Shown: piece after piece, positions 1 to 26,904 of the stretch | How positions within the stretch are numbered: the first letter of the stretch is position 1 | Layout: every line of letters begins with the position of its first letter | DNA from: Endomicrobiales bacterium | GTDB lineage: Bacteria > Elusimicrobiota > Endomicrobiia > Endomicrobiales > JALOBY01 | Direction: 5' to 3' | NCBI GenBank assembly: GCA_023228045.1 | Contig: JALOBY010000007.1 | Span: 1 to 60,230 of the forward strand | Length of the DNA: 60,230 nt | Notes under the pieces: model-generated | Seen by the model: the letters and a program-made list of their open reading frames with translations, nothing else | What the model was told of the DNA's origin: nothing | Database searches by the model: none | Position numbers and translations under genes: made by a program

Positions 1-3000
1 GTGTAAAGCTTGCCTGATCTGTTGAATAATAAAGTTTGTATTGCGTTCCATCGGGGTTGGTGTTTTCATACCAGCTTACCCTGATTGTGTCACTTGTTAC
101 TCCAAGGGTGGCAAGTGATGATGGGCTCTTGGAAAGCGTGTAAATGCTAGATGATGTTGAGTCAGTATAGCCAACAGGGTTGTGTGCTCTTGCAAAAGCA
201 GTGTAAGCTTTGTTTGGTAAAAGCCCCGTGCCCATAAAAGAAGTGGTGCCCGCAGGTAATTCCCCGGAAACATCGGTTGTTCCAGAATAGATTGTGTACG
301 ATGTTTCTTCGTTTACATCACTCCAGCTTACTTCAATTGAGTTGTCGCTTAAAGCTCTTCCTGTAAAGAATGTGAAAGCAGATGGAGTGCCCCAGAACAC
401 TACATTATTTGGATCGTTTTCATAAGCATGGCCCGCCTTTGCGCCTGTGGCGTTATCCATTCTTATGTCATTAACGCTTGGAGAAGACATATTTATAGCC
501 GACACATTTACACCTACATTTGCGTCAAACGAACAATTCTGCATTATATAAACACCAGTTGCCGGCATAAATGTAATTGCAGTTGCGCCTGGTTTTGTGT
601 TTAGGAAGTTTATTTTTCTAAAACCAAACATTCCATTAACTATTGTAAAGGTGTCTATTGAAACACCGTTTGACCCGCTTAAAGTTAAACCATTTACATT
701 TAGCGTTGCACCTGAGATAATAAAACCAAAGTAGCCGGCATTTGAAGTTATTGTGTTGTAGGTACCGTAAGTGTTTAGTATGCCGCTTACACTTATAGTT
801 GAACCACCGGCAAGATAAATGCTTCCGTTGCCCATATCAAAGGTACTTGAGTTGTAAGCACCTATGCCGCCTATAGCAGTAAGTGTTGAATCATTTAGGT
901 TAAACTTACCATCAATGTATAGCGTATTAATAACTGTCATTGGTTTTGCACCATAGCAATCAAACTGAGAGTTGCCAGAAACAAGCATACTGCTAATTTG
1001 CACGCTTGCGGCCGGTGTTATTATTTTAGTAAGAGATGTACCATAAACTTCAAAAACATCAAATGTTCCTAAAAGCGGAGATAATGTTTGAGTTTGAATA
1101 CCATGAGTTTGCCATGTGCCGCGAGGGTTAAATGTGGTGCCTGCTTTTTGTGTCATATTGCCACTACCCCTCAGAGACACTTGCGCATTGTTTGTATCAA
1201 AACCGCCGTGGTTTATATCAAAGTTCCCAAAAACATTCATTGTGCCCAAAGTAGAAACCGTACCTGTGCTTTCAATTAACACATTATTAAAACCAGCACT
1301 GCCCGGGTAAATGGTTTGGTCTGTTGTGCCTGCAAAACTAAGCGCTCCAGTGCCCGCGTCAAACCCTGCGCCGCCGCTCACAAGAAAGTTGCCTGTAATT
1401 GTATGAGTGGCAGAGCCGGCAATGAAACTACCTGCATACATTGAAAGAGAACCCATTTGCACTGCGTTATTGTTTGCATTAAAACTTCCGGCACCAGATG
1501 GAAAGTATAAGTCGCCTTTTATGTTCAAGTTTGAATTTGCCTGAACATAGGAAGATGTTATTACGCTGAAGTTGTTAAAGTACGAGTTCTGAGTTTGTAT
1601 AACTTTTTGCGCGAGAGTTCCTGCAAAACTAACACCACCAGTGTTAAGCGTTACAATACCGCCAGTTTGTTTCCAATCACCTTTAATTGTAATTGTACTA
1701 CCACCTTCAGTGCTCATATAACCGCTTTGCATATCTAAATCGCCGTCAATGTTAAGGTCGCTTATCAGCATTATTGTTGAAGCTGATGGGCTTAGAATTG
1801 TCATTGAAGCAATTGAAATATCACTTACCCAATGACAATCTCCGTTACCTGTGCCATCAAATATTATTGTTTCGCCGTTTTGAGGCACACCAGCTGGTTC
1901 CCATGCCTCAGAGTTTAAAGAATTGCTTAACGATGTTGATACCCACTTTCTTGTTTTTACAACCACGAAGGCACTTGCAACATTACTATAATCACCTGCA
2001 ATACCGTCTGAGTTTTGCGCCCTTACTTTAAAATACGAGGTCGCGCCCGGAATAAGTGTGTTAATTAGAACCGTTGTCGTCCTTATGCGTGAAACAAAAG
2101 GTACCGGCGTTGTGTATGAGCCAAAATTACTATCGGTAGATTGAATTACCTCATAAATTGTGGTGGTAGAGGCATTACCATTTGCATCCCAGTTTAGCGT
2201 TGCGCTTGTATAATAAACTTCGCTAAATGATGCACTTTGCGGAGTTCTGGGTAAAGTGAACCTGCCAACTAAATTGGTTGCGCCGCTTTCACCGGAGGAG
2301 TTATACTGTGTTAAATATCTGTAATGTGTTGTATTTAATGCAAGCCCGCTTTCAATGTAAGCCGTAACATCTGATGTTAACCCAAGTGCGATACCATTTC
2401 CCAAACTATCATAAAGGTTGTATCCGCTTACATAAGTAGTGCCGTGGTTCCACTGCCATTTTATTGTGTCTGTGCCAATGGCAATACCAACAAAATCACT
2501 TGGCGATGCCGGCAATGTAAGCACATTTGTAACACTGCTGTATCCCGGTGAAACAACAAGCTCATTATTTATTGCGCCAACCCTATAAGCATAAATTGTA
2601 TCGGCATTTAAACTGGTATCGCTATAACTTGTGGCGGGAACAGTTGCAATAAATACACTATTTCTTTCAAGACGATAAGCGATAGCTCCTGTATCTGCCC
2701 AGCCAAGCGTAACTGAACTTACATTAACGGCGTTAACACTTACCGATGAAGGTATAATTGCATAAGTGTATTTTTGTGTTGCTGTTGCACTGCTTAACCC
2801 AGCGCCATTATATTGTTTTAGCACTCTTGTGTATTGGGTATTTGCATTAAGCCCGGTTTCAATGTAGGCTGTTACATTTGAAACTAAGCCAATCGCTAAC
2901 TCAAATCCCGTTGAAGTATAAAGGTTGTATCCACTTACATAAGTACTGCCATGGTTCCACTGCCATTTTATTGTGTCTGTTCCAATGGCAATACCAACAA

Positions 3001-4830
3001 AACCACTTGGTGATGCCGGCAATGTAAGCACATTTGCAACACTGCTGTATCCCGGTGAAACAACAAGTTCATTATTTATTGCGCCAACTCTATAGGCATA
3101 GTATGTATCGGCACTTAAACTGGTATCGCTATAACTCGTGCCGGTAACACTTGCAACAAATACACTATCTCTTTCAAGGCGATACGAATTTGCCCCAGTA
3201 TTCGCCCAGCTAAGTGTAATTGAACTTACATTAACGGCGTTAACACTTACCGATGAAGGTATAATTGCATAAGTGTATTTAGCATCACTGTTTGATGCAC
3301 CTGATATTCCACTTATGTTACCTGCTTTTACATATCTTGTGTATTGTGTGTTGCTGCTTAAACCAACTTCAAGCCATTGTGTCACACCCTCTACATTTCC
3401 AACTTTACTGTCATCAGTGCCATTGTATATCGCATAGTATGTTGCATTCGCACTTAATGTCCAACTCCATTGTATTGACCCCGTGCTTTGTACTGCTCCA
3501 CTAAATGAGCCTGGCGCAGCTGGCGGAGCGGTGTTTATTGTAATATCAATACCTAAACTATTAAATTGTGATGCTACAGGAACAGAATCTGCGTAAATGC
3601 TGTAATATTCGTTTGAATCTAACCGACCATTTTCGTTTACATCAACAAAAGCAGTCACTTTATAAAAACTATATGGTGTTGAAACCCTTAACGAGTAATC
3701 CCATGCCGGTGTGTTTGGAGTGCTTTCAGTAACATTATAAGGGCTTGCACCGCCAAAAGAAGGAGATGCAATTACAACAATGTTGCCTATTTGTTCAGAG
3801 TTGTTGGTTATATGTCCGCTTATAGCGCCAAAATCAAATAAAGAGAAATCCACATTTGAAGCAGTATGTGATGATGCGCTTAAATATATTGGCGTTGCAT
3901 TCCACCAATTTGACGCTTGCCTAAAATAACCTATCGGCTCATAGCCGTCCGGCACATCATTATCATTTTCATCAATCAGCGCCATAACATAGAAAGTATT
4001 TGGAAGCGACAAATTGCTAAAACTATAATACCCTGCACCAGTGAAAGAAGTTATAGGCGTTACAAAACTCATAACACCATTATCGCCGATAGCGCTTGCT
4101 ATAGCAACTTTATATACGCCGCCAACAAAAGAGCCATTGTAACTCATAATACCGGATATTGTTCCGGAAGTTATCGGCAATGCCTCAGAAGCACAGGCAC
4201 TTGAGATATTTGAAACTGCAGACCAATTACTCACTTCATCCGCGTTCCAAATTGCAAAATAATATGTTACACCCGAAGTAAGCGGGCCGACAATTTGCGA
4301 AACCACATCGCCCGACGTAACATTTGAAGTTGAAACGGTTATTTGCGCAAGCGGATAATTCCAGCCAGAGAGTGAGTCCCCACTTGCCACTGTGGCATAT
4401 TGCACTTTATATTGTGACCCTACCGGCAAACTTCCAAACATTCCATCGTCACCGGGAGCACCCCATGAAAGTTTAACATTGCCACCGAGTGTATCTGCCG
4501 TTCTTGCCACAAGTGTAGTAACCGCCGCTGGAGCTATTGTATCACCAAGCAAAATATAGGCAGAACTCATTGCGGATGTATTTGACCAACAATCAACATT
4601 TTCATCTCTTGTCCAAAGCTTAAAGTAATAGGTAGTATTGCCGCTAAGCGCACTACTGCTAAGTGTAACGCTTTGAGAATCTCCCGGGTTAATTGAACTG
4701 GTTGTTACAATTATAATCTGCGCAGAAGCAGTGCTCCATACAACGCCCTGACTTTGCGAATATTGCAAGGCAAACACACTACCAGCTTGCAATTGGTTTA
4801 ACATACCATCATCACCCGGTGCCCCAGGAC
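1..4830 (-). CDS. Giant cell-surface protein, C-terminal continuation, partial (runs off window start). It is the same gene as 4812..8615 read in the +1 frame. It contains FN3-like repeats with a WQWNHG..GYNLY motif, a parallel beta-helix-like region, and more FN3 repeats.
   Basis: I translated the minus-strand frame by hand and it stays open from ~4830 to the window edge. FN3 domain motifs recur throughout. The frame is open across the upstream stop codon and re-creates the domain motif SW-APGDDGM at the junction. The ORF track lists no such ORF, presumably because there is no stop inside the window. Confidence 0.7.
2250..3270 (-). repeat. Tandem duplication of two ~510 bp units (~170 codons each) inside the giant gene, encoding near-identical FN3 domain pairs.
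   Basis: The strings ttcaatgtaagccgtaac / ttcaatgtaggctgttac and ccactgccattttattgtgtctg recur at an offset of ~508-510 bp. The translated units KYTYAIIPSSVSVNAVNVSS...GTDTIKWQWNHG.TYVSGYNLY are ~90% identical. Confidence 0.8.
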
Positions 4831-7800
4831 ACAATTGCGGTACGAGGAGTTGAGCTTGCAACAGCCACAAAATAAGTCGGGGTTGAAGGTGCGACAAGGC
4901 AATTAGTATTAATTTCTGTGGAATTGTAATTTCCTGCCAAATCATAGCCGCTAAGGGTTAAATTCAAAGAGGTGTTGTCAGTTAAAATATTAAGTGGTGA
5001 ACCATTAAGTGAAACACTATTCTCTCCCGTTATTAACTGGTCACCCAACAATGGAAAGTTTGACCCACTTGCAGAAAACATTGTTGTAGCTACAGGAATT
5101 GTGTAACAATCTTCGCTAAGTGAGTAATCAACATCAAAAAAACCATTTCTAAAAATTAATCGCTCACTGCCAGCTGGGTGTGTAATTTGAAGAGTCGGAT
5201 TTGTGCGGTCAACTGTAATTGCGGCTGTGCTTTTTACGATATGGAGCCCATCAGTAAATTCAAAAATCAAAGTATGCACACCTTCTGAAATTTGCCCATA
5301 CCAACTCCCGTTTTTATCATAGAGGGAACCGTTCATCCATTGCGAACTTCCTAAAGTACCAGTTGTGTATGCAAGGTTGTAAGGTACACTTGAGGAGGCT
5401 GAAGCAGGGAAGTAATCAACCCCATCATCAAACACACCATTGTCGTTCATATCAAAATAAAGCGAGTAATTACCATTTTCGTTGGCACTAAAATCAGACT
5501 GTAAACTGGGCTCAAGTGAACCGGGGTTAGCGTTTAAGTGTTTATCATGATTGCCGTCTAAATCATAACAATTAAATGAAATAACTGGTGTAGATGTATC
5601 AACCCTAAATGTCCAACTTATATTTGAGATATTTGGTATTGTGGCTTTATCGCGAACACTTAGGTAAACAGTGTGGCTTCCCTCGCTAAGGCCAGAGCAG
5701 TCGTAAGAAAGCTCGCCATTTGAAGGGTTAAAGCTTGGGGTTACCGGCGAAGCGTCTAAACTTATAGTTGTTGAAGCGACATTAATACCGGTTCCATCAC
5801 CATCGGATAGGGTTGCAAGTATAGTTGGATTGATATTGCCTATAAGACCGTTTATTGCCGGCGAAATAAAACTTATTACAGGTTTTTGTGTGTCAAGGGA
5901 CGGGTCTGGGGTTAAATATATGTGGTTTAGCGATGCCGTTGAAAGAATTCCAGTCCAAGTATTAAAACCTGTCACATTAACTCTTGCAGAAAATGTGGAA
6001 CTAACTGGCAAGTACTTTACCTGAAAATTTCCTCCAGAATCGCTATTGCTAAAACCAATTAGATAAGCTCCAGATATAATTTCAATAGACGCATCACTTA
6101 TAGTAGAGCTTGAAGCCGCATTTTTAACATCTCCAGAAACGCTAACTCCGGTACTGATTATTATATCAGCGTTAAGTGTGCCTTCAGCTACACCAATTGT
6201 TCGCGCGATTACCTGCTGTTCTGCTTCGTTGAAAATACCAATACCATAAACTAACCCGGTAGCAACATTTATACCATAATGGCCTGTAGAAGTAGCCATA
6301 GAAACAAAATCAGGGTTACTTTTTGGTGCAGGCGAACCCGCAGGTAAGGCAAATATCATAAACGGCCCGCTATGCGTTGTATTATTGATAATATTGCCAG
6401 AAATACCACCTAAGGGCAAAGTTAAAAGAAAATTTTTGGTGTTTGTACCCGGGTGAGTTATAAATGAAAGGTCAGAAGTTTGAGAGATATGACCATCATT
6501 CTTATCTGAAACATGAAGTTCCATCCCTGTGCCAGTTGAAACACCACCAATATAATAGTAACCACCAGTATCGGTTATTACGCTATATTGTGATACCTCT
6601 CTTTGCGTATCTGACCACATAAGATAAACATTAATGTTACCCAAAGGGCCACCGGTATCTGACACAGTACCTTCAATAGCAACAGCTGGAGGTAGGTTAA
6701 TGTTAACATCTGGGTTTACGGAAAAGTTTGTTGTTTGATTTTCAAAAACATCTATATCTGTGTGATATGCAAAACCAAGAGATGAGTCAACACCTGAAGG
6801 GTTTGCCATAACAATATAAGAGCCGGCGGCAAGGTTAGAAAATGTGTAATAACCTTCTGAGTTTGCTTGAGTACTGTTTGAACTGCTGCCATCATGCAAA
6901 TCGTTAAGTGAGTTGTAAAGTGAAACGCTGCAATTTGCAACAGGCATTGTTCCAGAAAGTATCTGACCGTATATTGAGCCACCATATGCAAGCACAAAAT
7001 CAATCTGCGTTGTGGTGCCTGGCAAAAGCGTTCTATTAGCAGTTATATTGCCAAAACCATCTTTAGAAACTGTAATACTTTCACTGCCCGAGCTTACCTG
7101 GTCCACATAATTTCCGGAAGCATCTGTATTAGTTTGCTCCCAAATAGTTGGACTGTTGCTCATCGTTTCTAAGTATGAAGTTATTGTTGCGTCTGCAATT
7201 GGCGCGCCGGTGTAAAAATTTGTTACTGTTCCATGTATTTTTACACCCTTTGTTAGAGTAATAGTGCCAAAATCTACCCCGTAAATATTTCCAATTTGCT
7301 TTGCTGCACTATAAGCGCTTGCATAAGGGCTTGAAACTGCCATTAACATATATGTAGAGTTATCCGCATTTATGCCAAACACTTTAAAGTTACCGCTTGC
7401 ATCGCAAACACCATAGCGGTCCCAACCAGAATAATAACTCTCCGACCACTGCTTGCCAACACTCACAACCGCTCCTGCGCAAGGCAAGCCATTGGCAATA
7501 ACTTTACCAGTTGCAAAACCCGAAACCGCCCAAGCGCCCAAACTTCCTTGCTCAGTTGTGGTATTACCATAGCTATCTGTCACTTTTATCTGAGCGTAAT
7601 AGGTCGTGTTGTTATCTACTATGTTCTTTGATATCATCATCTGGCCTGGATCTGGGGTGCCTGTGTTTTGTTTACTGCCATCCCATTGCACACGCGGGCT
7701 TGCGTATGAATCTGCCCAAATATTACTATTTACTACATAGTCATTTTGGTCAAAAACCCCATCTAAATTTGTATCTATTGTGAAAACATAGCTACCATCT

Positions 7801-8615
7801 ACTGCCGAAAGAAAATCAAAGTATATGTTGTCTTGATTATTATCGTTATTTGGGGTAAAGCCAGCGGTTAAATTACCGGAGTGTGTACCCTGGTCTAAAT
7901 CAGCAGTTAAACCATAAATTCGCCAATCCACAGGTATTGTGTTTGCGGTTTTACCAGAAGAAAGTGTTCCAAAATCAAAGAATTTTGTAAAAGTTGCGGG
8001 ATTGCGGCTGGAAAGATTCTGTTCAGGAAAACAATTCTGCACATTATTTGAAACATCATCTTGTGTAAACACCATAACTTTTATGCTTGTAGCAGAAGTT
8101 ATAGCAAGGTCAGCCATAGGAATTGAAAGCTCATGAATATTTCCAAAAGTTGAGGAAGAAGAAATTAGCGACCCGCTCCAAGATGCCAAAACCCAAGCGT
8201 GCGTAGCAGCATCATATTTGTAAAGGCCTTTTAGAGTATCGGAATCATAAACAAAAGCATAATGCGCGTTAAACGGAAGTGTGTGATATGAACTGCTTGT
8301 GTTCCAATCAAGCGACGAGTTAGTACCACCCGAATTTGATGTGCTAATATAAATAAAGTAGTCATGTAAACAACTTGGAGTATCTTGCAGACCAAAGTAA
8401 ATTGCAGTAGAACTCCATGTGGTATAAATAGATGTTGTTATGCCTGAGTAATTCTCAGTTCCAAGTAGCTCATCACTACTCCAATCCACTGAACTGCCAT
8501 CAACAATATAATTCTTAAACGACGCCGCATTGGCACTTGCGACAAAAAAACAAAACACGAAAAAGAACGACAGAACAGCCCACATTTTAATTTTTTTTGT
8601 CATAAAATTTTCCAT
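4812..8615 (-). CDS. Giant secreted surface protein, N-terminal part (1267 aa). It has a signal peptide, several carboxypeptidase-regulatory-like (prealbumin-fold) domains and Ig/FN3-like domains. It ends at TGA TGA because of a frameshift.
   Basis: The ORF track gives a 1267 aa ORF. The N-terminus MTKKIKMWAVLSFFFVFCFFVASANA is a typical Sec signal peptide, preceded by an AGGAGA ribosome-binding site. Several ASGN[FY].V motifs typical of CarbopepD_reg-like domains are present. The C-terminus TPRTAIVSWGTG* truncates an FN3 motif. Confidence 0.8.
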   Translation of the reverse strand: MENFMTKKIKMWAVLSFFFVFCFFVASANAASFKNYIVDGSSVDWSSDELLGTENYSGITTSIYTTWSSTAIYFGLQDTPSCLHDYFIYISTSNSGGTNSSLDWNTSSSYHTLPFNAHYAFVYDSDTLKGLYKYDAATHAWVLASWSGSLISSSSTFGNIHELSIPMADLAITSATSIKVMVFTQDDVSNNVQNCFPEQNLSSRNPATFTKFFDFGTLSSGKTANTIPVDWRIYGLTADLDQGTHSGNLTAGFTPNNDNNQDNIYFDFLSAVDGSYVFTIDTNLDGVFDQNDYVVNSNIWADSYASPRVQWDGSKQNTGTPDPGQMMISKNIVDNNTTYYAQIKVTDSYGNTTTEQGSLGAWAVSGFATGKVIANGLPCAGAVVSVGKQWSESYYSGWDRYGVCDASGNFKVFGINADNSTYMLMAVSSPYASAYSAAKQIGNIYGVDFGTITLTKGVKIHGTVTNFYTGAPIADATITSYLETMSNSPTIWEQTNTDASGNYVDQVSSGSESITVSKDGFGNITANRTLLPGTTTQIDFVLAYGGSIYGQILSGTMPVANCSVSLYNSLNDLHDGSSSNSTQANSEGYYTFSNLAAGSYIVMANPSGVDSSLGFAYHTDIDVFENQTTNFSVNPDVNINLPPAVAIEGTVSDTGGPLGNINVYLMWSDTQREVSQYSVITDTGGYYYIGGVSTGTGMELHVSDKNDGHISQTSDLSFITHPGTNTKNFLLTLPLGGISGNIINNTTHSGPFMIFALPAGSPAPKSNPDFVSMATSTGHYGINVATGLVYGIGIFNEAEQQVIARTIGVAEGTLNADIIISTGVSVSGDVKNAASSSTISDASIEIISGAYLIGFSNSDSGGNFQVKYLPVSSTFSARVNVTGFNTWTGILSTASLNHIYLTPDPSLDTQKPVISFISPAINGLIGNINPTILATLSDGDGTGINVASTTISLDASPVTPSFNPSNGELSYDCSGLSEGSHTVYLSVRDKATIPNISNISWTFRVDTSTPVISFNCYDLDGNHDKHLNANPGSLEPSLQSDFSANENGNYSLYFDMNDNGVFDDGVDYFPASASSSVPYNLAYTTGTLGSSQWMNGSLYDKNGSWYGQISEGVHTLIFEFTDGLHIVKSTAAITVDRTNPTLQITHPAGSERLIFRNGFFDVDYSLSEDCYTIPVATTMFSASGSNFPLLGDQLITGENSVSLNGSPLNILTDNTSLNLTLSGYDLAGNYNSTEINTNCLVAPSTPTYFVAVASSTPRTAIVSWGTG

Positions 8616-8877
8616 AAACTCTCCTAAAAATCAAATAAAAAAGCCACAGGCACATTTGTCTACGGCTTAATTTTATATGATACTTTTTATTGTCTCCATT
8701 GTAATCTGTTAAATTAGATTTCGCAACATATAAAGTATCCCATAAAAATTTGTTTTTGTCAATAAAAATTTTACAAGTTTTTTTAAAAAATTCCTGAAAA
8801 TTATCACAAATCAAAATACTTTTTGTGTTTTTAACTTTTCAACTGTTAAAATACTGCCCAAAACACCTTATGTTTTG

Positions 8878-8907
8878 TTGACAATATGCACACAATTGGA
8901 ATATAAT
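8878..8907 (+). promoter_or_regulatory. Sigma70-like promoter for the HNH gene (TTGACA, 18 nt spacer, TATAAT).
   Basis: TTGACA sits at 8878-8883 and TATAAT at 8902-8907, about 10 nt upstream of the ATG at 8918. Confidence 0.5.
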
Positions 8908-8917
8908 CAAATAAATT

Positions 8918-9517
8918 ATGAGTGATGTTTTAATTTTAAACAGAAACTTTTATGCAATTCAAATAACCAGCTGGCAAAGAGCGCTTAGCCTGCTTTATAT
9001 TGACCATGCCTCAGTGGTTGATGATGACTACAAAACCTATTCTTTCAACGACTGGAAAGAACTTTCACAAATGGTGGGTTCTACACCTTCGGGCTTTGTT
9101 ACAACACCAAACTTTAAAATTGCCATACCGGATGTAATTGCATTAAAATTTTACGACAAACTCCCTGTTTCCGAGGTAAAATTTACCAGAAGAAACATTT
9201 ACGAACACTTCGGATACAAATGCTGTTACTGCGGCAACAAATTTGAAACAAACAACTTAAATTTAGACCATGTTACCCCAAAAAGCAAGGGCGGTAAAAC
9301 CAACTGGGAAAACATTGTAACCTCTTGTATACCCTGCAACCTAAAAAAAAGCAACCACTTGCCAAGCGAAGCAGGAATGAAACTTCTAACTATCCCATCA
9401 AAACCAAAGTGGCGCGGGCCAATGGCTATTGCATTTAACTCACCAATAAAAATAAAAATATCTTGGCAAAAATTTATAGATAACGCTTACTGGAATACAG
9501 AGTTAGAAAACAGTTAA
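8918..9517 (+). CDS. HNH endonuclease family protein (199 aa).
   Basis: HNH motif [46 protein letters not shown] (C-x2-C ... DH ... N ... C-x2-C). Confidence 0.8.
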
Positions 9518-9579
9518 ACTATACAAAATGCAAAAATAATAGTTTAGCCACAAACAAAATAAAATTACTGGAGAAGAAA

Positions 9580-10938
9580 ATGGAAGACATCAAAATTACA
9601 CTGCCAGAAAAAGAAATGCCAACACATTGGTATAACATTCAGGCCGACTTAGCAAACCCATTGCCTCCTGCAATTCACCCTGGCACAAAAAAACCAATTG
9701 GCCCGCAAGACCTTGCTCCGCTTTTTCCAATGGAAATTATAAAACAAGAAGTAAGCACTGAGCGCTGGATAGAAATACCAGATCAGGTACGCGAAATATA
9801 CCGTCTTTGGAGGCCTGCACCGCTTTTTAGAGCGCATCGCCTTGAAAAATTTTTAGATACCCCCGCAAAAATCTACTACAAATATGAAGGTGTAAGCCCT
9901 GCCGGAAGCCACAAACCAAACACAGCTATCGCACAGGCCTACTACAATATGAAAGAAGGCGTAAAACGCATAACTACAGAAACCGGTGCTGGCCAATGGG
10001 GCTCAGCGCTTGCACTTGCCTGTGACCTATTTGGCATAAAGTGCACGGTATATATGGTAAAGGTCTCATTTGACCAAAAACCATACCGCAAATATATGAT
10101 GCATATGTGGGGTGCCGAAGTATTTTCAAGCCCAACAACAAGAACAGAGGCCGGCCGTGCCATATTAGAAAAATACCCAAACTCAAATGGCTCGCTGGGT
10201 ATAGCAATTTCTGAAGCAATTGAAGATGCTGTTAAAAGCGGTTCAAAGTACTCCCTTGGCAGTGTGCTAAACCATGTACTTATGCACCAAACAATAATCG
10301 GCCTTGAAACAAAAAAACAAATGGAAATGGCTGGCGATTACCCCGACATTATTATCGGCTGCCTTGGTGGCGGCTCAAATTTTGCGGGTATTTCATTCCC
10401 ATTTTTAATGGACAAACTACAAGGTAAAAAGAAAAAACTACGCGCAATAGCCGTTGAACCAGCGGCCTGCCCAAAACTAACAAAAGGGCCTTATGCGTAC
10501 GACTTTGGCGACACAGCAGGAATGACCCCACTTTTAAAAATGTACACACTTGGGCATACTTTTATGCCAGCCGGCATACATGCGGGCGGACTGCGCTACC
10601 ATGGAGCATCGCCGTTAGTATCAATACTCAAACATGAAAACATAATTGAGGCAGTTGCTTACAATCAAAACCCTGTATTTGAAGCCGCGATAAAGTTTTC
10701 AAAGTGCGAAGGCATAATACCGGCACCCGAGTCGGCTCACGCTGTTAAAGCCGCTATGGATGAAGCATTAAAGGCAAAAGAAAGCGGAGAGAAAAAGGTA
10801 ATTTTGTTTAACCTTTCAGGCCACGGGCACTTTGACCTTGCCTCTTACGAATCATATTTAAACGGCGAGTTGGTTGATTTTGAATATCCATCGGAAAAAG
10901 TAACCGAAGCCCTTAAACAACTGCCAAAGATAAGCTAA
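9580..10938 (+). CDS. trpB: Tryptophan synthase beta chain-like PLP enzyme, long TrpB2 type (452 aa), with no adjacent trpA.
   Basis: [11 protein letters not shown]-lysine region and an HxGxxxxG-like [11 protein letters not shown] motif. The ~450 aa length with N-terminal extension is typical of TrpB2. Confidence 0.75.
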
Positions 10939-11296
10939 AAATAAATTAAAAGAGTTCTTAAGTTGGCAAAAATATTGCCGCTAAAGAACTCTTTGTGTGT
11001 ATTTAGCTATTGTAAATCATTAGTGTTTGATTTTGTTATTTCCGACCCCTCCCAGTTTATGTCATTCAATGACAAAATATGTGGGACAATGGTGTAGTCA
11101 TAGCTGTTTGATTAAAAGTTAATCTGCAATCGCATTTAATTTTCAAGTCATTGCGAATCCTGCGAAGCAGGGTGTGGCAATCTGGTGTTAAAATTTTACG
11201 ACGAGATCGCCACGGCCTTTGGCCTCGCGAAGACGCCGTCCGGCGTATTTTAACCGGACAGTTGTGATACAAAATAACTAAAAATTAGGATATTAA

Positions 11297-12124
11297 ATGA
11301 ACGAAATACTTTCAAAACAAACACTCTCCGTAAATGTAAAACGCATGGAAGTTTCGGCGCCTGAAATTGCCAAAGCGACAAAATCTGGCCAGTTTATTGT
11401 CTTAAGGGTCAACGCCTTGGGTGAAAGAATTCCCCTGACCATTGCCGGAATAAATAAAGAAAAGGGCACAATAACTATTGTATTTCAAGAAATTGGCAAA
11501 ACCACAAAATTGCTTGGAACGCTCAATGTAGGCGACTGTATTAAAGACCTGCTTGGCCCGCTTGGGCACCCGACAGAGCCACAAACCGGCAAACATATAG
11601 TTGCCATTGGCGGCGGAGTCGGCGTAGCCGAAATTTTACCTGTGGCTCGCTTTTACAAAGGATTATCAAACACCGTTACCGGCATAATAGGCGCCCGCTC
11701 AAAAGATCTAATAATTTTTGAAGATGAAGTGGCGCACACCTGCGATAATTTTTTTATAACCACCGATGATGGCTCTTACAAAAGAAAAGGTTTTGTTTCC
11801 GATGTTTTAAAAGAGTTAATTGCAGGCCCCAATAAAATTGATATTGTTTACGCCATTGGCCCTGTGCCAATGATGAAATTTATTTGCGATATAACAAAAC
11901 CCCATAACATTAAAACCATTGTTTCACTAAACCCAATTATGCTTGATGGCACCGGAATGTGCGGTGTATGCCGCTGCACGGTTGAAGGCAAAACAAAGTT
12001 TGCCTGTGTTGACGGGCCGGAGTTTGATGGGCACCTTGTAAACTGGGCAGAGTTTTCCACACGGCTTAGCACTTTCAAATCAGAAGAAAAAATTTCAAAT
12101 GATTCCTTTATGGGGCAAAGATGA
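11297..12124 (+). CDS. nfnA: NfnA/SudB-like ferredoxin-NADP(+) reductase small subunit (PyrK-like FAD/NAD-binding fold with a C-terminal 2Fe-2S cysteine cluster).
   Basis: 275 aa. The C-terminal motif GMCGVCRCTVEGKTKFACVDGPEF matches the PyrK/SudB-type 2Fe-2S cluster. It overlaps the downstream gltD-like gene by 4 nt. Confidence 0.65.
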   Translation: MNEILSKQTLSVNVKRMEVSAPEIAKATKSGQFIVLRVNALGERIPLTIAGINKEKGTITIVFQEIGKTTKLLGTLNVGDCIKDLLGPLGHPTEPQTGKHIVAIGGGVGVAEILPVARFYKGLSNTVTGIIGARSKDLIIFEDEVAHTCDNFFITTDDGSYKRKGFVSDVLKELIAGPNKIDIVYAIGPVPMMKFICDITKPHNIKTIVSLNPIMLDGTGMCGVCRCTVEGKTKFACVDGPEFDGHLVNWAEFSTRLSTFKSEEKISNDSFMGQR

Positions 12125-13497
12125 TAGAACGCATACATATGCCAGAGCGTCCGGCAAGCGAACGCAAAAATGATTTTTTAGAAGTAAACAAAGGATATAC
12201 AAAAGAACAAGCCGCTATTGAAGCAAGCAGGTGCCTACAATGCAAAAATCCACTGTGCGTTAGCGGATGTCCGGTAGAGATAAATATACCCGGTTTTATT
12301 AAGGCACTTGCACAAAATAACCCACAACAAGCAATAAAAGTTCTTAAAGACAAAAACAACCTTCCAGGTGTCTGCGGCAGGGTTTGCCCGCAGGAAGAAC
12401 AGTGCGAACTTAAATGTATTCTCGGAAAAAAAGGCAAAAGTGTTGCCATAGGAAACCTTGAACGCTACACCGCAGATTGGGCAATGGAAAATTCCATAAC
12501 ACAAAATGATACTATAAAAAACAATGGCAAAAAAGTTGCAGTAATTGGCTCTGGTCCTGCCGGGCTCACCTGCGCGGGCGACTTGGCAAAAGAAGGTTTT
12601 TTGGTAACTGTTTTTGAATCACTGCACCTTGCAGGCGGTGTTTTGCGCTATGGCATACCTCAGTTTCGCCTGCCTCCAAAAGTATTAAACACAGAGATAA
12701 CAAACCTTGAAAAATCGGGCGTAAAAATAGAGCTAAACTGCCTTGTTGGCAGAACAATCCCTTTAATGGAACTTTTCTCTCAGGGTTTTGATGCTATATT
12801 TGTCGGCACCGGCGCAGGACTTCCAAAATTCTTTAATATATCAGGTGAAAACCTAAACCACATATATTCCGCAAATGAATTTTTAGTGCGTGTAAATTTA
12901 ATGAATGCCTTTAGTTTTCCAAAATACGACACACCAATTTACTCTGGTAAAACCGTGGCTGTTTTCGGCGGCGGCAATACCGCTATGGACAGCGCCCGCA
13001 CAGCACTGCGCCTTGGTGCCCAAAAAGTTTACCTAATTTACAGACGCTCACAAGATGAAATGCCCGCAAGAGCAGAAGAGGCAAAACACGCCAAAGAAGA
13101 AGGCGTTATTTTTACAATGCTTACTAACCCTGTTAAATTTATTGGCGATGAAGCAGGAAAAGTTAGCGCGGTTGAATGCGTAAAAATGGAGCTTACCGAG
13201 CCAGACGCATCGGGCAGAAGAAAGCCAAGAACAATAGAGGGCTCTAACTTTCAAATTGAAATAGATATGGCGGTAATTGCCATTGGGCTTGGGCCAAACC
13301 CCCTGCTTCCCTCCCAGACAGCAAACCTAAAAACAGATAAGTATGGACACTTAATAATTGATGAAAATGCTATGACAAGCATTCCAGGTGTTTTTGCCGG
13401 AGGCGATATTGTAGGTGGTGAAACGGTAATACAAGCAATGGGAATGGGTAAAAAAGCGGCAAGGTCAATAATAAGTTACCTAAACAATCATAGCTGA
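12121..13497 (+). CDS. nfnB: NfnB/SudA/GltD-like NADPH-dependent oxidoreductase large subunit (2x[4Fe-4S] plus FAD/NAD binding).
   Basis: 458 aa. Cysteine motifs CLQCKNPLCVSGCPV and CGRVCPQEEQCELKC. Dinucleotide-binding motifs VAVIGSGPAGLTCA and VFGGGNTAMD. Confidence 0.7.
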   Translation: MIERIHMPERPASERKNDFLEVNKGYTKEQAAIEASRCLQCKNPLCVSGCPVEINIPGFIKALAQNNPQQAIKVLKDKNNLPGVCGRVCPQEEQCELKCILGKKGKSVAIGNLERYTADWAMENSITQNDTIKNNGKKVAVIGSGPAGLTCAGDLAKEGFLVTVFESLHLAGGVLRYGIPQFRLPPKVLNTEITNLEKSGVKIELNCLVGRTIPLMELFSQGFDAIFVGTGAGLPKFFNISGENLNHIYSANEFLVRVNLMNAFSFPKYDTPIYSGKTVAVFGGGNTAMDSARTALRLGAQKVYLIYRRSQDEMPARAEEAKHAKEEGVIFTMLTNPVKFIGDEAGKVSAVECVKMELTEPDASGRRKPRTIEGSNFQIEIDMAVIAIGLGPNPLLPSQTANLKTDKYGHLIIDENAMTSIPGVFAGGDIVGGETVIQAMGMGKKAARSIISYLNNHS

Positions 13498-13719
13498 CCA
13501 AATTAGCCGTCATACCGGCGAAAGCCGGTATCCATGAAACAAAATCAATATTTAACTGGATTGCGGTTGGAATTTACCCTCGAGTGATTTAGTTGGGGGC
13601 CGCAATGACGACAAAGACATTTTAAAATAAAAATATTACTGTTCTAAAAATGACCACTCAACGCAATATGCTGTTCAAATTTGACACATGTAATAAACAA
13701 TAAATTTTAAAACTTCTTT

Positions 13720-14565
13720 TTAAAAGTTCTTCCTAATAAACCCAATCACAGCACAAATGGCGTAACAAGCCACTCCAACAAGCACAATTGCGGCACTAGC
13801 CGAACTTCCAAAGTAAAAAGAAAGCACCAAACCGCACATAGAAGAAAACAACCCAATTGCTAATGCCACGACCGTGTAACTTTTAAAATTTCTACAAATA
13901 TTTCTCGCACTTGCCGCTGGTAAAACCAAAAGGGAACTTGCCAAAAGCACACCTAAAAACTTCACCGCTGATGCTACCGACACCGCAAGCACAAGCATAA
14001 AAATAATTTCAACCGCATTTACATTTACTCCTCGCGAACGCGCCAAAGGCGGGCTTACGCCAACTAAAGTAAGCCGGTTTGAAAATAAAACCCAGTAAAC
14101 AAGCACACAACAAAGCAAAATATACAACCACAAAATCTGACCGGCAGAAACGGCCAATAAATCGCCTGTCAAATAAGCTGTGTACTTCGCAAACCCGCCG
14201 CCGATACTAAGTAAAAAAACACCCAAACCTACAACCGCCGCGAATATAACTCCCAAAACTGTGTCGTAAGAAGCGCCCGTGAATTTTTTTATAAAAATTG
14301 AAAGCAACGCAACAACACAGGCAAAACCCACAACCGCAATATTCATATCAAAAATACCAAATAAAACTCCAAGCGCCACTCCGGAAAGAGCGCTATGTCC
14401 AACCACATCCGAAAAAAACACAAGCCGGTTTCCCACAACAGCCGTACCAAGCAAAGAAAAAATTGGCGCAAGCGCGAAAAGCGCAACTATCGCGTTGCGC
14501 ATAAAATCGTAATGAGCCCAGCTAAATGGGAGTAACCCTATAATATGATTAACATAACTTAACAT
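13720..14565 (-). CDS. Metal (Zn/Mn) ABC transporter permease.
   Basis: 281 aa polytopic membrane protein. Its position and size match the ZnuB/MntB family, downstream of the ATPase and substrate-binding protein genes. Confidence 0.7.
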   Translation of the reverse strand: MLSYVNHIIGLLPFSWAHYDFMRNAIVALFALAPIFSLLGTAVVGNRLVFFSDVVGHSALSGVALGVLFGIFDMNIAVVGFACVVALLSIFIKKFTGASYDTVLGVIFAAVVGLGVFLLSIGGGFAKYTAYLTGDLLAVSAGQILWLYILLCCVLVYWVLFSNRLTLVGVSPPLARSRGVNVNAVEIIFMLVLAVSVASAVKFLGVLLASSLLVLPAASARNICRNFKSYTVVALAIGLFSSMCGLVLSFYFGSSASAAIVLVGVACYAICAVIGFIRKNF

Positions 14566-14582
14566 AACTAATTCTACCTCTA

Positions 14583-15314
14583 TTAAAACCCATGTTTAAG
14601 CATTCTTTGAACATTCTGGTTTTCAAGAACTTCTTTTGGAGTCCCATGAGAAATAACAGTGCGGTTTAAAAAAACCATAGCATCTGCATGCGGCGCAACA
14701 CAGTCAAGGTCATGGGTAACCATAACAACCGATAAATCAAATTTCCTTCTTAACTCATCTACTATTTTATAAAACAGCGAATGTCCTGAGGCATCAACCG
14801 CAGAAACCGGCTCATCTAACAGCATAATTTCAGGTACCGGATTTATAGCAGTTGCAAGTAAAACTTTTTGAAGTTCTCCACCCGAAAGCAATGCAAGCTT
14901 TTTGTTGGCAAGCTCTTTTGCGCCAACAAGTTCAAGCACAGATAAAGCGGTTTTTTTCCAATTTTGTTCAAAACCACTCCATGCCGGCCTTTTTGCACAG
15001 GCACAGGCCATCAAATCCAAAACACTTAAGGGTGAATCGGGTTCTATATGCAATTTTTGTGGTACATACCCAATTTTTGGTTTTTCCCCAAGAGTACCTT
15101 TAACCTTATATGAGATTGTACCGCTGTAAGCTACCTCGCCAAGCAATGCCCTAAGCAAAGTTGTCTTTCCTGCTCCGTTTGGGCCAACAAGCGCAAGCAA
15201 CTGACCACAATTTATATGCAGGTCAACATTTTCAAGCGCGTAAACATCCCCAAACTTAACGGTTAGTTTTTCTATTTTAGTGCAACAGTGAGAACAACTC
15301 GTTTTTTCGTTCAT
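14583..15314 (-). CDS. Metal ABC transporter ATP-binding protein.
   Basis: Walker A GPNGAGKTT, ABC signature LSGGELQ and Walker B LLDEP. Confidence 0.8.
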   Translation of the reverse strand: MNEKTSCSHCCTKIEKLTVKFGDVYALENVDLHINCGQLLALVGPNGAGKTTLLRALLGEVAYSGTISYKVKGTLGEKPKIGYVPQKLHIEPDSPLSVLDLMACACAKRPAWSGFEQNWKKTALSVLELVGAKELANKKLALLSGGELQKVLLATAINPVPEIMLLDEPVSAVDASGHSLFYKIVDELRRKFDLSVVMVTHDLDCVAPHADAMVFLNRTVISHGTPKEVLENQNVQRMLKHGF

Positions 15315-15339
15315 ATTAAATTTCTAAATATTTTCGGTA

Positions 15340-16224
15340 TTATTTTGAAAGCGATTCCTTTAAGGTTTTTAAATTCCCCCGCATTATCTCAATGTAGGCG
15401 TCTGGTTTCAGCTCGCCCGATACTACAGGGTCAAGAATGTAAACTTTGGCACCAGTTTCTTTGGCAATTATGTTTGCCGCATCTGCAGGATACTGCGGCT
15501 CGGCAAAAAGCACTTTTATTTTATTTTTATTGACAGTGTTTATTGTTTCAACCAACTCTTTGGCCGATGGTTTTGATGCTGGTTCGCGCTCAATAACATC
15601 GGCTATCTCTAAGCCAAACTCACTGGCAAAATAAGGAAACGCCTCATGAAAAGTTATAATTTTTCTACCTTTATACTGGTTTAACTGTTGCTTCATTTCT
15701 GTAAGCAACTTGCCAAGTTTTTCTTTATATAAATCCGCGTTTTTTTTATACAGCAAAGAATTCTTCGGGTCAACATTTGATAAGAATTGCGAGAGGTTTT
15801 CTGTCATTAAAATTGCATTTGAAACACTCACCCATGTATGCGAATTTTCAATCCCGTAGCTGTCTTCAATAAGTTTGATACCGTCAGACAACTTTGCAAT
15901 TTTCAAATTCGGATTTGTTTTTGCAACCTTTTCAATAAAGTTTTCCATCCCTGCGCCATTTGCAATAAACAAGTCGGCATTTTGCAACTTTTGCATATCT
16001 TTTGTGTTAAGCGAGTAGTCGTGTAAGCAACCTGAGTAATTTGGAGCAAGGCTATCAACCGAAATACCAGAAACACCATTGGTTACATTCAATAGAATTA
16101 TGCGTATAGGGTAAAATGATGCAATTGCTTTTATTGTTGGCTGTTCTTTGGAGAAAATATTTATAGGTAAAAGAACAAGAAATGATAACAGAAATAATTG
16201 TTTAAATTTAGAACTATTAAACAT
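15340..16224 (-). CDS. Metal-binding periplasmic substrate-binding protein (TroA/ZnuA family). No His-rich loop is visible.
   Basis: 294 aa with a signal peptide. Its similarity pattern and genomic context with the ABC ATPase and permease match cluster-9 substrate-binding proteins. Confidence 0.7.
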   Translation of the reverse strand: MFNSSKFKQLFLLSFLVLLPINIFSKEQPTIKAIASFYPIRIILLNVTNGVSGISVDSLAPNYSGCLHDYSLNTKDMQKLQNADLFIANGAGMENFIEKVAKTNPNLKIAKLSDGIKLIEDSYGIENSHTWVSVSNAILMTENLSQFLSNVDPKNSLLYKKNADLYKEKLGKLLTEMKQQLNQYKGRKIITFHEAFPYFASEFGLEIADVIEREPASKPSAKELVETINTVNKNKIKVLFAEPQYPADAANIIAKETGAKVYILDPVVSGELKPDAYIEIMRGNLKTLKESLSK

Positions 16225-16330
16225 AATAACCTTTTATTATACTTTTTTGCTCTTAGTGTTAGTTGATTATACCGCAGGAAGGTTTTTGTGTCAACAAGGG
16301 AACAAACTTTACAACTTACTTAAAAATAGT

Positions 16331-16388
16331 TAGGGGACATTTCCAAGCGCTTTAGCTTTTTACAAAATTTTTTGGAAATGTCCCCATT
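16331..16388 (-). terminator. Perfect 14-bp inverted repeat (GGGGACATTTCCAA ... TTGGAAATGTCCCC), followed on the minus strand by a T-rich stretch. Likely an intrinsic terminator, possibly an operator, for the small K-rich ORF upstream of the metal transporter operon.
   Basis: Read directly from the sequence. Confidence 0.5.
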
Positions 16389-16393
16389 AAAAA

Positions 16394-16465
16394 CTATTTT
16401 TTTTTCTTTTTTGCACCTTTTTTAGCTTTTTTTGCTGCTTTTTTTGCTGGTTTCTTGCCTGCCAT
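16394..16465 (-). CDS. Small lysine/alanine-rich peptide (23 aa, MAGKKPAKKAAKKAKKGAKKKKK), histone H1/Hc1-tail-like.
   Basis: ATG preceded by AAGGGGTGAG with 5 nt spacing. The stop is followed within 6 nt by a strong hairpin. The peptide is below the ORF-track size cutoff. Confidence 0.4.
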   Translation of the reverse strand: MAGKKPAKKAAKKAKKGAKKKKK

Positions 16466-16750
16466 TAGTACTCACCCCCTTATATTAACTAAATAAAAAT
16501 AAAAAAATCCGAGTAGGGCATTACCCCCGTTTCGGATTATTCTTAAGCCACTTCTTTGTTGGCTTTTTTATTTTCATGCATTTGTATTTTAACACTAATT
16601 TATTTAATTTGCAATTATTTATTGGTTATCCGACGATATATTTTTAAAAACAATTTTTCAATTCTATGTTTTAATTTATTTAAAAATTTAAAACTTCCAA
16701 TGTTCCTTTTTATATTTGAAATTCCCGACGAAATTTTCTAAAATCTACTT

Positions 16751-17452
16751 ATGAAATTTACTGAAGACATAAAGAATGTTTTTTACAGAGACCCCGCGGC
16801 GCGCTCGTGGGTTGAGGTTCTTTTTTGCTACCCAGGACTGCACGCTTTGTGGTTTTATCGTTTTGCAAATTTTTTCTGGAAAGTAAAATTTTATTTTGTT
16901 GCGCGGTTTATTTCTAACATTGCGCGCACGCTAACCGGCATTGAAATTCACCCAGGAGCAAAAATTGGGAAACGCTTTTTCATTGACCACGGTATGGGTG
17001 TAGTAATTGGTGAAACTACCGTAGTAGGCGACGATGTACTTATTTATCAAGGAGTTGTACTTGGCGGCACCTCACTTGAGAAAAAGAAACGCCACCCGAC
17101 GGTAGGCAACAATGTTGTAATTGGCGCAGGCGCTATTGTGCTTGGCGCTATAACACTTGGAGATCATTCGCGGGTAGGTGCTGGTTCGGTTGTTTTTCAC
17201 GATGTGCCGCCACACTCTACTGCCGTTGGTGTACCTGCAAGAATAGGGCTTGGCTTTTCTGATAAAGAACTTGCGGAACTTGAACACAGCAAACTGCCAG
17301 ACCCAATAGCAGATGCAATACAATTTGTTTTAAAAGAACAAGATAAACTTGAAAATAGAATTGTAAAACTTGAAGCAGCGAAAGGCCTACCACAACAATC
17401 CAACCAATCTTTCCAAGACAAGAAAAAAGAGTTGGAAAAAGAATTTGAATAG
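16751..17452 (+). CDS. cysE: Serine O-acetyltransferase with a C-terminal coiled-coil extension.
   Basis: Hexapeptide-repeat left-handed beta-helix core ([44 protein letters not shown]). Confidence 0.8.
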
Positions 17453-17511
17453 ACATGTACACTTCATTAAATAAATTTTTTTAAAAGTCTGCTGCTAATA
17501 GAGGATAATTT

Positions 17512-19449
17512 ATGACACCTAAAAATACACCTATGTCAGTTGCAAAAAAAATAATTTCGGCACATCTTATAAGCGGCAAAATGGAGCCAGGCCAGGAAAT
17601 AGCGCTAAAAATTGACCAAACCCTCACGCAAGATGCAACGGGCACTATGGCATACTTGCAATTTGAAGCGATGGGTGTAGAAAAAACAAAAGCAGAGCTT
17701 TCAGTTAGCTATGTTGACCACAACACACTGCAGACAGGTTTTGAAAATGCCGACGACCATGCCTACTTGCAAAGCGTTGCGGCAAAATACGGAATTTATT
17801 TTTCCCCTGCCGGAAACGGTATATGCCACCAGGTGCACTTAGAGCGCTTTGGAGTGCCTGCTAAAACACTTGCAGGTTCTGATTCGCACACACCCACTGC
17901 CGGTGGAATTGGTATGCTTGCCTTTGGTGTCGGCGGGCTTGATGTGGCATGCGCCATGGCGGCACAACCCTTTTATTTTGCAATGCCAAAAATTGTTAAT
18001 GTAAAACTTACAGGAAAACTTTTAGGATGGGCAAGCGCGAAAGATATAATTCTTGAACTTCTAAGAATTCTTAGCGTTAAAGGTGGCAGAGGAAAGATAT
18101 TTGAGTTTAGCGGCCCAGGAGTTAAAACTCTAAGTGTGCCGGAACGCGCAACAATAACAAATATGGGCGCGGAACTTGGCGCCACAACATCGCTTTTCCC
18201 ATCAGATGAAATTACACTTGCTTTTATGAAACAGCAAAAGCGTCAAAAAAACTGGAAAAAACTCGTTGCAGATGAAAACACACAATACGACGAAACAATT
18301 GAAATTAACCTTTCAAAAATAGAACCACTCATCGCACTGCCTCATAGCCCCGACAATGTAAAAAAAGTAAGAGATGTTGAAGGTATAATAGTTAACCAGG
18401 TAGCTATCGGCTCTTGCACAAACTCTTCGCTTGCCGATATGCTGCTTGTGGCAAAAGTTCTTAAAAACAAAAAAGTTCACCCAAATGTAAGTTTAGTTAT
18501 ATCCCCCGGCTCACGGCAAGTTGTAGCAATGCTTGCGCGAAGCGGCGCTTTAAATGACTTAATTTCGTCGGGTGCGAGAATTATTGAAAATGCCTGCGGG
18601 CCATGTATAGGTATGGGGCAAGCTCCTCAAAGCGGTGCTGTTTCTTTAAGAACTTTTAACAGAAATTTTGAAGGCAGAAGCGGCACAAAAGACGCAAGCG
18701 TTTACCTTTGCTCGCCTCATGTTGCGGTTGCTGCCGCGATAACCGGCAAAATAACTAACCCATTAAAACTTGGGCTTGCGCCTAAAATAAAACTGCCGAG
18801 TAATTTTTTGATTGATGAAAAACTAATAATCGCACCAGAAAAAAAAGCATTTAAAATAGAAATCATTAGAGGACCAAATATAAAGCCCCTGCCAAACTTT
18901 AAGCCAATGGACAAACTTTTTGTACTTGATGTTTGTCTAAAGGTGCAAGATAATATAACAACTGACCACATATTGCCGGCTGGTGCAAAGATATTGCCGC
19001 TTCGCTCAAATTTACCGGCCATTTCGCAATACACTTTTGGAGCGGTTGATAAAGATTTTGTCGCGCGAGCAAAAAGTTCCGGCTCATGTGTTATAGTTGC
19101 CGGTGAAAACTACGGGCAGGGCTCATCGCGCGAGCATGCTGCGCTTGCCCCAAGGTTTTTAGGAGTAAAGGCCGTAATTGCAAAGTCATTTGCGCGCATT
19201 CATCTTGCAAATTTAATTAACTTTGGAATTTTACCGCTTGTTTTTGAAGATGCCGCTGAGTATAATAAAATTTCTCTTAACGATAAAATTATTATAGAAA
19301 ATGTTTCTGCCACAAACCAAAAAATTGAAGCAAAGTTAATTTCTCAGGGCAAAGAAAGCAAAATTCATCTTAATCATCTGCTTAGCGAAAGACAATTTGA
19401 AATAGTGCGTTGCGGCGGTCTTTTAAACTTAATCAAAAATAAAAAGTAA
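17512..19449 (+). CDS. Aconitase-family hydro-lyase (645 aa, catalytic and swivel domains fused).
   Basis: Fe-S ligand motifs IGSCTNSS and CGPCIGMG, and SREHA in the C-terminal small domain. Confidence 0.75.
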   Translation: MTPKNTPMSVAKKIISAHLISGKMEPGQEIALKIDQTLTQDATGTMAYLQFEAMGVEKTKAELSVSYVDHNTLQTGFENADDHAYLQSVAAKYGIYFSPAGNGICHQVHLERFGVPAKTLAGSDSHTPTAGGIGMLAFGVGGLDVACAMAAQPFYFAMPKIVNVKLTGKLLGWASAKDIILELLRILSVKGGRGKIFEFSGPGVKTLSVPERATITNMGAELGATTSLFPSDEITLAFMKQQKRQKNWKKLVADENTQYDETIEINLSKIEPLIALPHSPDNVKKVRDVEGIIVNQVAIGSCTNSSLADMLLVAKVLKNKKVHPNVSLVISPGSRQVVAMLARSGALNDLISSGARIIENACGPCIGMGQAPQSGAVSLRTFNRNFEGRSGTKDASVYLCSPHVAVAAAITGKITNPLKLGLAPKIKLPSNFLIDEKLIIAPEKKAFKIEIIRGPNIKPLPNFKPMDKLFVLDVCLKVQDNITTDHILPAGAKILPLRSNLPAISQYTFGAVDKDFVARAKSSGSCVIVAGENYGQGSSREHAALAPRFLGVKAVIAKSFARIHLANLINFGILPLVFEDAAEYNKISLNDKIIIENVSATNQKIEAKLISQGKESKIHLNHLLSERQFEIVRCGGLLNLIKNKK

Positions 19450-19544
19450 TCTCTGCACTTAAATTGTGCTGTTTATTAAATACTTGTCAATTTGCTTTTG
19501 CGTGTTTAGGTAAAACTTAAAATTTAAGTTTTTAAGGAAGGTTT

Positions 19545-20807: not shown

Positions 20808-20838
20808 AATTCAATAATAAATAGCCGGTCACAAAATG

Positions 20839-20898
20839 CCCCTCACCTCAATCCTCTCCCTCGAGGGGAGAGGAAGCCCGAAGGGCAGGTGAGGGTGA
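20839..20898. repeat. Family-D nested hairpin element (cccctcacct ... cctctccctcgaggggagagg ... aggtgagggtg) in the proA-moxR intergenic region.
   Basis: Perfect nested inverted repeats. Related copies lie at 26734-26860 and 35845-35945. Confidence 0.7.
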
Positions 20899-21014
20899 TG
20901 TAAAAGTGTCGTTAGAAGTGGCAAGAAGACAAAAATATTTTGACCTCTGAAATTCTCAACGGAAAATGAGTTTCGTGACAGGCAATTCAATAATAAATTT
21001 GTTGGAGGGTTAAT

Positions 21015-22010: not shown

Positions 22011-22078
22011 AAATACATCCTGTGCGTATTTAAAAAACTAAATCATTACTAAAAACCTCTTAAGTATCTTATTGAGTT

Positions 22079-22960: not shown

Positions 22961-22998
22961 ACCCGGATTTTGCAAAATACAGGTTGGATTAATTAAAA

Positions 22999-24926: not shown

Positions 24927-24935
24927 AAGGTAAAA

Positions 24936-26653: not shown

Positions 26654-26733
26654 CTATAAAACACTGTATAATGTATTAATTAAACAATAAATATAAACTT
26701 TCACAGCTGTCTGGTTAAAAAAATGTTATTTTT

Positions 26734-26860: not shown

Positions 26861-26904
26861 ATGTTGAATGAGACATGGAGATAAAAATAGTTTGTCATCT
26901 TAAA

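Follow-up and report, generated by a model that had tools for sequence, protein, structure and literature searches.

Introduction

Single indels in draft genomes and in metagenome-assembled genomes (MAGs) are a general source of split-gene annotation artefacts. Among giant surface proteins, a comparable repeat-rich example is SprB of Flavobacterium johnsoniae, a cargo adhesin of the type IX secretion system (T9SS). With regard to short G/C runs, the C6 run in bvgS of Bordetella pertussis is phase-variable (PMC1891110), and contingency loci of Campylobacter jejuni are counted from 7 repeats in one study (PMC4965091). The present work deals with a giant gene for a predicted surface protein, located at one end of contig JALOBY010000007.1 (assembly GCA_023228045.1), a 60,230-nucleotide stretch from an Endomicrobiales bacterium (Elusimicrobiota) that was analysed at its full length and is called the window hereafter. 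In the window, this gene appears as two open reading frames (ORFs) on the minus strand that meet at a run of four G residues (G4), while the intact allele carries six (G6). The two ORFs are one giant gene broken by a homopolymer frameshift.

As a split-gene annotation, the locus shows no essential difference from those known in draft genomes and MAGs: an automatic pipeline made separate proteins from one interrupted gene, and this textbook case is conspicuous by the size of the gene alone. As a protein, it shares with the SprB-type T9SS adhesins the size (thousands of residues), a probable N-terminal signal peptide, arrays of Ig/FN3-type domains, and a C-terminal beta-sandwich. Those adhesins, however, belong to Bacteroidota, whereas the present gene is found in Elusimicrobiota (Endomicrobiales); its C-terminal domain falls just below the curated cut-offs, and no sequence similarity extends past the generic domains. 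As a lesion, it resembles the bvgS C6 run and the polyG loci of C. jejuni, in that a short in-frame G/C run differs between otherwise identical genomes and the product is truncated. Here, in contrast, only G6 and G4 have been seen, at a mid-gene run of chance frequency that is not maintained across the orthologs, and the change is of 2 bp. The mechanism is the standard homopolymer frameshift, like the mutational inactivation found in many surface genes, and is not new.

The G run interrupts a single gene

From position 4832 down to 4809, the minus strand reads GTG TCC TGG GGC ACC GGG TGA TGA, and the upstream ORF of 1267 residues ends in ...TAIVSWGTG followed by two tandem stops. A second frame, displaced by +1 and read from the CCT at 4828-4826, begins PGAPGDDGMLNQLQAGSVFALQYSQ and stays open for 1609 codons as far as window position 2; an open frame of this length directly after a stop cannot have arisen by chance. 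The two stops are the GAT GAT (Asp-Asp) of a GDDG motif read out of frame, as this motif appears as G-D-D-G in the intact sequences L001 and L004 described below. An intact paralogous module start (...KLSWGAPGDDGMFGSLPVGSQYKVQY) is present about 120 codons beyond the junction, at about 4470-4440, where the corresponding codons are TGG GGT GCT. The tandem stops after VSWGTG, the open +1 frame and the later intact copy of the module start had been read in the same way in a preliminary description of the window, although the tract had been placed there at 4823-4826, one base off. On the other side of the junction, the 43 codons of the downstream frame that precede it (...MIWQEITIPQKLILIALSHLQ...) have no counterpart in the ortholog proteins, which match the upstream frame as far as ...VSW.

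The intact allele is found in a second assembly of what is otherwise the same sequence. The ENA contig ERZ27247363 k141_2091023 (L001; 61,446 bp, MEGAHIT assembly) was reached by exact look-up of the neighbouring TrpB-like protein, and three overlapping pieces of it were compared with the window by BLAST. It is 100% identical over window positions 1..57922 apart from one 2-base gap, which falls in the G run: CCCCCC in L001 (4848-4853) against CCCC in the window. Gene calling on L001 gives one uninterrupted ORF of 2881 residues, which runs off the contig end. Its junction, TGG GGG GCA CCG GGT GAT GAT GGT ATG, is translated as ...TAIVSWGAPGDDGML... and contains the exact module motif VSWGAPGDDGM. 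The true repair is thus the addition of two G residues. Removal of one G, as proposed in the preliminary description (VSWAPGDDGM), also restores the frame but drops a residue present in all intact copies. Wherever Logan contigs of SRR8542065 cover the two versions, they match each of them at 100% identity. One of these contigs (L002) ends at window position 4986, 160 bp from the tract, which is too distant to inform on heterogeneity there; no 31-mer repeat that would explain this break was found inside the window.

Two further lineages carry the gene in an uninterrupted form. The first is represented by the contig Ga0247841_10005257 (L004) of the Joint Genome Institute (JGI), found by a metagenome scan with the repaired junction region. 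It shows 93-95% DNA identity to the window, has the same HNH-endonuclease neighbour, and contains a single ORF of 3550 amino acids (aa) from ATG to stop, without one 169-aa repeat unit; its junction is TCT TGG GGG GCA, that is, G6. The other lineage is represented by two contigs found by look-up of a TrpB cluster member, JGI Ga0247840_10006160 (L008) and ENA ERZ27250570 (L009), which are 100% identical to each other over 11,251 bp without gaps. Compared with the window, their nucleotide identity is about 84% for the giant gene, against 92-93% for the housekeeping genes that flank it. The ORFs of both (2224 and 1837 residues, respectively, cut by the contig ends) continue across the junction, which reads TCT TGG ACT GCT CCC GGT GAT GAT GGT (VSWTAPGDDGM) and contains no G run. 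Among the identical-strain contig and the two orthologous lineages, no relative ends at VSWGTG, the outcome that would have spoken for two independent genes. Moreover, the ratio of nonsynonymous to synonymous substitution rates (dN/dS) against L004 is 0.216 upstream of the junction (1264 codons) and 0.224 downstream (1447 aligned codons); these near-equal values indicate the same purifying selection on both halves, which have been kept as coding sequence. In a search of 5.8 billion proteins only distant FN3 proteins were found, with at most 51% identity over short stretches and none longer than 1048 aa, and no orthologs among them. Scans of the GTDB species representatives with the junction region and with an N-terminal alignment gave no relative.

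The junction also falls inside one FN3-like domain and divides it. In L001, with its intact allele, the Pfam family Pur_ac_phosph_N matches across the junction from profile position 6 to 88 of 93; the downstream fragment of the window alone matches only positions 30-88, and the 37 residues before the stop gave no match when searched alone. Because the G6 contig is open, the two orthologous lineages are intact, and only the intact allele encodes this domain in full, the two ORFs are one gene, as the preliminary description had proposed.

Gene extent and protein architecture

The gene is divided in GenBank into three proteins. The upstream ORF corresponds to one record (Table 1). MCK9582482.1 is the downstream frame from the ATG at 4804 (7 nt past the stop), with 1601 aa and the name 'fibronectin type III domain-containing protein, partial'. 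The last one, MCK9583168.1 (P0117), has 941 aa and lies on a separate 17.6-kb contig of the same MAG; it overlaps exactly the last 38 residues encoded by the window and carries the true C-terminus. Exact look-up of P0117 returned no further record. The three records are fragments of one surface-protein gene, split once by the frameshift and once by a contig break, as the MAG contig ends within a repeat array. For the strain of the window, the full protein is estimated at about 3715 aa.

Table 1. Coordinates of the giant gene and of its features in the window.
Feature	Position	Strand	Basis and remarks
5' fragment, 1267 codons plus stop	4812..8615	-	MCK9582483.1, 'carboxypeptidase-like regulatory domain-containing protein'; exact-sequence look-up
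3' continuation in the +1 frame, 1609 codons, off the contig end	2..4828	-	Frame read from CCT 4828-4826
Part of the single giant gene within the window, 2872 codons after repair	1..8615	-	Remaining ~843 codons on the P0117 contig
Premature stops TGA TGA	4809..4814	-	Frameshift product; junction sequence and translation
G4 run (CCCC on the + strand), shortened G6, frameshift site	4822..4825	-	Window sequence; comparison with L001 and L004
Probable Sec signal peptide MENFMTKKIKMWAVLSFFFVFCFFVASANA	8526..8615	-	Read by eye from the translation; likely cleavage after ANA (MENFMTKKIKMWAVLSFFFVFCFFVASANA, then AS)
FN3-like (Pur_ac_phosph_N-type) module across the junction	4577..4897	-	Pfam match on the intact allele

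The signal-peptide-like N-terminus is nearly invariant in the three lineages. It is followed by an N-terminal region of about 430 aa, four CarboxypepD_reg (transthyretin-like) domains with weak Ig-like matches, and FN3 or FN3-like modules; then come a central region of about 520 aa, further FN3 modules, and a C-terminal beta-sandwich of about 100 aa that resembles T9SS sorting domains. In the 1267-aa piece, Pfam detects the four CarboxypepD_reg domains together with weak Big_3_3 and SdrD_B matches. Sequence searches of Pfam and PDB gave no match for either the N-terminal region (window 7236-8525, minus strand) or the central one (389-1948, minus strand). The latter contains many G/N/T/S repeats and, judged by its composition alone, may be a beta-helix. 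The C-terminal domain reaches 22.7 bits with TIGR04183, below the cut-off of 23, and 25.2 with Pfam CHU_C (cut-off 27); FlgD_ig gives 18, and the C-terminus of PorZ gives a local match (E = 9e-15). None of the T9SS machinery (PorK/L/M/N, Sov, PorU/V) turned up in the 60-kb contig, in which no search aimed at it was made. From these features the giant protein is predicted to be secreted and located at the cell surface, and it resembles the T9SS cargo adhesins, a group of which it may be a member.

Divergence between lineages is much faster in the giant gene than in the genes around it, and the copy number of its repeats varies as well. Two of its internal repeats, at 2342-2773 and 2849-3280, are 87% identical.

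Origin of the shortened G run

Two readings of the junction can be set aside with near certainty. That the ORFs are truly separate genes would agree with the annotation, since the NCBI Prokaryotic Genome Annotation Pipeline calls two proteins (MCK9582483.1 and MCK9582482.1) and the ATG at 4804 stands close behind the stop. However, the junction cuts an FN3-like domain in two, a signal peptide is absent from the downstream piece, the stretch between 4500 and 5100 contains no promoter-like or terminator-like site, and all the relatives examined have one ORF; this reading is refuted. Of the causes named in the preliminary description, a pseudogene is likewise excluded in the form of an old, decaying one: there is a single lesion, 1609 open codons follow it, the divergence from the intact allele is zero, and dN/dS against L004 is about 0.22 in both halves. 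Taken together, separate genes or an old pseudogene are extremely improbable. The same can be said of programmed +1 ribosomal frameshifting or transcriptional slippage, by which G4 would still yield the full-length protein. The +1 frame does continue through the stop without interruption, the 0 frame meets its stop codon a short way downstream, and a shift right after TGG would give VSW-APGDDGM. Nonetheless, that product would lack the Gly/Thr residue common to all intact copies, a tract of four bases is too short for slippage of the RNA polymerase, and no recognised +1 motif of the prfB type was seen when the sequence was read by eye. The relatives and the identical-strain contig are single-frame and contain no conserved frameshift site, so that the in-frame orthologs effectively refute this explanation, to which hardly any probability can be given.

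What has to be weighed is whether G4 exists in the organism. The window contains 674 G/C runs of length 3, 131 of length 4, 14 of length 5, and no longer ones; L001 and L004 each have a single G/C run of at least 6, the G6 at the junction, and no such run occurs in L008 or L009. What distinguishes the two assemblies is thus confined to the longest G/C run, and this fits slippage, either in the cell or in the laboratory and computer. Since there is a single lesion and otherwise identity to the intact allele, the event must be extremely recent or non-biological. It could be that G4 arose as an artefact when the MAG was sequenced, error-corrected or assembled, and that the organism has G6 and an intact gene, the split being confined to the deposited sequence. 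Technical length errors concentrate at such longest runs, and the ENA assembly and both other lineages give the intact gene. Nevertheless, no other indel or mismatch is found in 57.9 kb, in spite of 27 runs of A/T with a length of 8-9 and 14 of G/C with a length of 5, all of which (27/27 and 14/14) agree between the assemblies; this disfavours a general, platform-wide homopolymer error process. In the same direction, the ten other window genes that were checked all match family models; for five of them (TrpB-like, GltA, aconitase, ProA, and Lon), whose hits are at equivalog level, the match extends over nearly the whole model. The perfect agreement of L008 (JGI) with L009 (ENA), two assemblies of the third lineage, also argues for a real allele. 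A short-read consensus is unlikely to be wrong by two bases, because most of the reads would have to be wrong, and such errors are unusual in short-read assemblies. This difficulty tilts the balance slightly to a genuine allele present at substantial frequency in the material from which the MAG was built.

We therefore lean slightly towards G4 as a real, recent, non-programmed allele rather than an artefact, with about as much doubt as confidence. Several points weigh against this preference. The consensus or the assembly may yet be in error at G4, where the sole G/C run of at least 6 in 60 kb would lie, and slippage usually changes the length of a run by one base, a contraction of 2 bp being less common. 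A second independent G4 sequence was not found when the 1267-aa ORF, taken from either of two start codons, and a conjectured Logan fragment of 67 aa were looked up by exact match. Finally, the window and the ENA assembly may share one read set, as the Logan SRR8542065 contigs match both, in which case their disagreement would reflect either heterogeneity among the reads or an artefact of the assembler. An error of this kind, which the preliminary description had also listed among the possible causes, is accordingly kept as a serious candidate, although on balance a doubtful one.

The preliminary description had also suggested an on/off switch. According to this idea, the G run would be an evolved contingency tract, ON with G6 and OFF with G5, G4 or G7 through slipped-strand mispairing, and the assemblies would have caught two states. 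The tract length does differ between two 58-kb sequences with no single-nucleotide difference, G6 giving the open frame and G4 a stop after codon 1267. Phase variation usually affects surface proteins, and the gene is predicted to encode one; it also evolves faster than its neighbours (84% vs 92-93% nucleotide identity); in addition, there is the C6 precedent of bvgS (PMC1891110). This length polymorphism, nevertheless, is documented by one pair only (G4 in the window, G6 in L001, with 0 other differences in 57.9 kb), and the observed G4 is two steps away from ON. At six residues at most, the tract is below the usual hypermutable G/C length, and one such run per 60 kb is about what chance predicts from the run-length distribution given above. 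It is not maintained either, being present in L004 but absent from L008/L009, where the codons are TGG ACT GCT, and from the paralogous module, with TGG GGT GCT; and its position, codon ~1265 of ~3700, is well away from the 5' end. An evolved switch is therefore not supported by positive evidence. A G run that turns a giant T9SS-type surface protein on and off by mutation in a free-living uncultivated Endomicrobiales bacterium, with ON and OFF sub-populations of one clone, is in our view improbable. We know of no documented phase-variable surface protein in Elusimicrobiota, although no literature search was aimed at this point.

Under the preferred reading of G4 as a real allele, its biological origin and its consequences for the protein can be inferred as follows. 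The ancestral functional state is G6, in the TGG GGG GCA codons (W-G-A) of the SWGAPGDDGM module start. Two bases would have been lost from it very recently by slipped-strand contraction, in some or all members of the population that was sampled, shifting the frame into TGA TGA after codon 1267. The resulting G4 form would be an ordinary, non-programmed loss-of-function allele. Its first product would be a truncated fragment of 1267 aa, potentially exportable across the inner membrane and devoid of the C-terminal sorting domain. The second, formed at best by re-initiation at the ATG at 4804, would be a signal-less C-terminal piece that could not be exported. With the signal peptide and the sorting domain on different polypeptides, the G4 form would be null for surface display.

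Other features of the window

The divergent neighbour of the giant gene, at 8918-9517 on the plus strand, encodes a stand-alone HNH endonuclease of 199 aa, and this arrangement is conserved in the three lineages. Its HNH region resembles that of IscB/Cas9d (E = 1e-10 to 1e-12), although the matches stay well under the cut-offs for these families. Further along the window, a row of genes for MoxR, DUF58, VWA, BatA, BatA, TPR, BatD and TPR proteins (21015-29932, plus strand) constitutes a Bat (Bacteroides aerotolerance)-like operon.

Two copies of an element of about 145-150 nt, 92% identical and in inverted orientation, are located at 28767-28910 and 38865-39009. The former lies inside the 3' part of the BatD-like ORF (27270-29198), and the latter in a 730-bp intergenic gap (38501 to 39232). 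The element folds into one long near-perfect hairpin (minimum free energy -73.8 kcal/mol, z = -8.9) and looks like a miniature inverted-repeat transposable element (MITE) or a repetitive extragenic palindromic (REP) element. In addition, an Rfam nhaA-I RNA, a riboswitch-type cis-regulatory element, is matched at 56359-56411 on the minus strand (52.2 bits vs a gathering score of 37), upstream of a DUF1646 gene (54912-55973, minus strand).

Implications

The main value of these observations lies in annotation hygiene. Uncorrected, the three records inflate gene counts and conceal a giant gene, and they should be merged or flagged as one frameshifted gene. What becomes visible once they are joined is a giant, fast-evolving family of predicted surface proteins in Endomicrobiales, with FN3, transthyretin-like and T9SS-CTD-like (C-terminal domain) modules and with intact orthologs in at least three co-sampled lineages. 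If the G run did act as a switch, phage or grazer pressure would perhaps be behind the sub-populations with G6 (ON) and G4 (OFF). If G4 is simply a real allele, it would be a minor case of a surface protein varying by loss of function within a natural population, which is expected biology.

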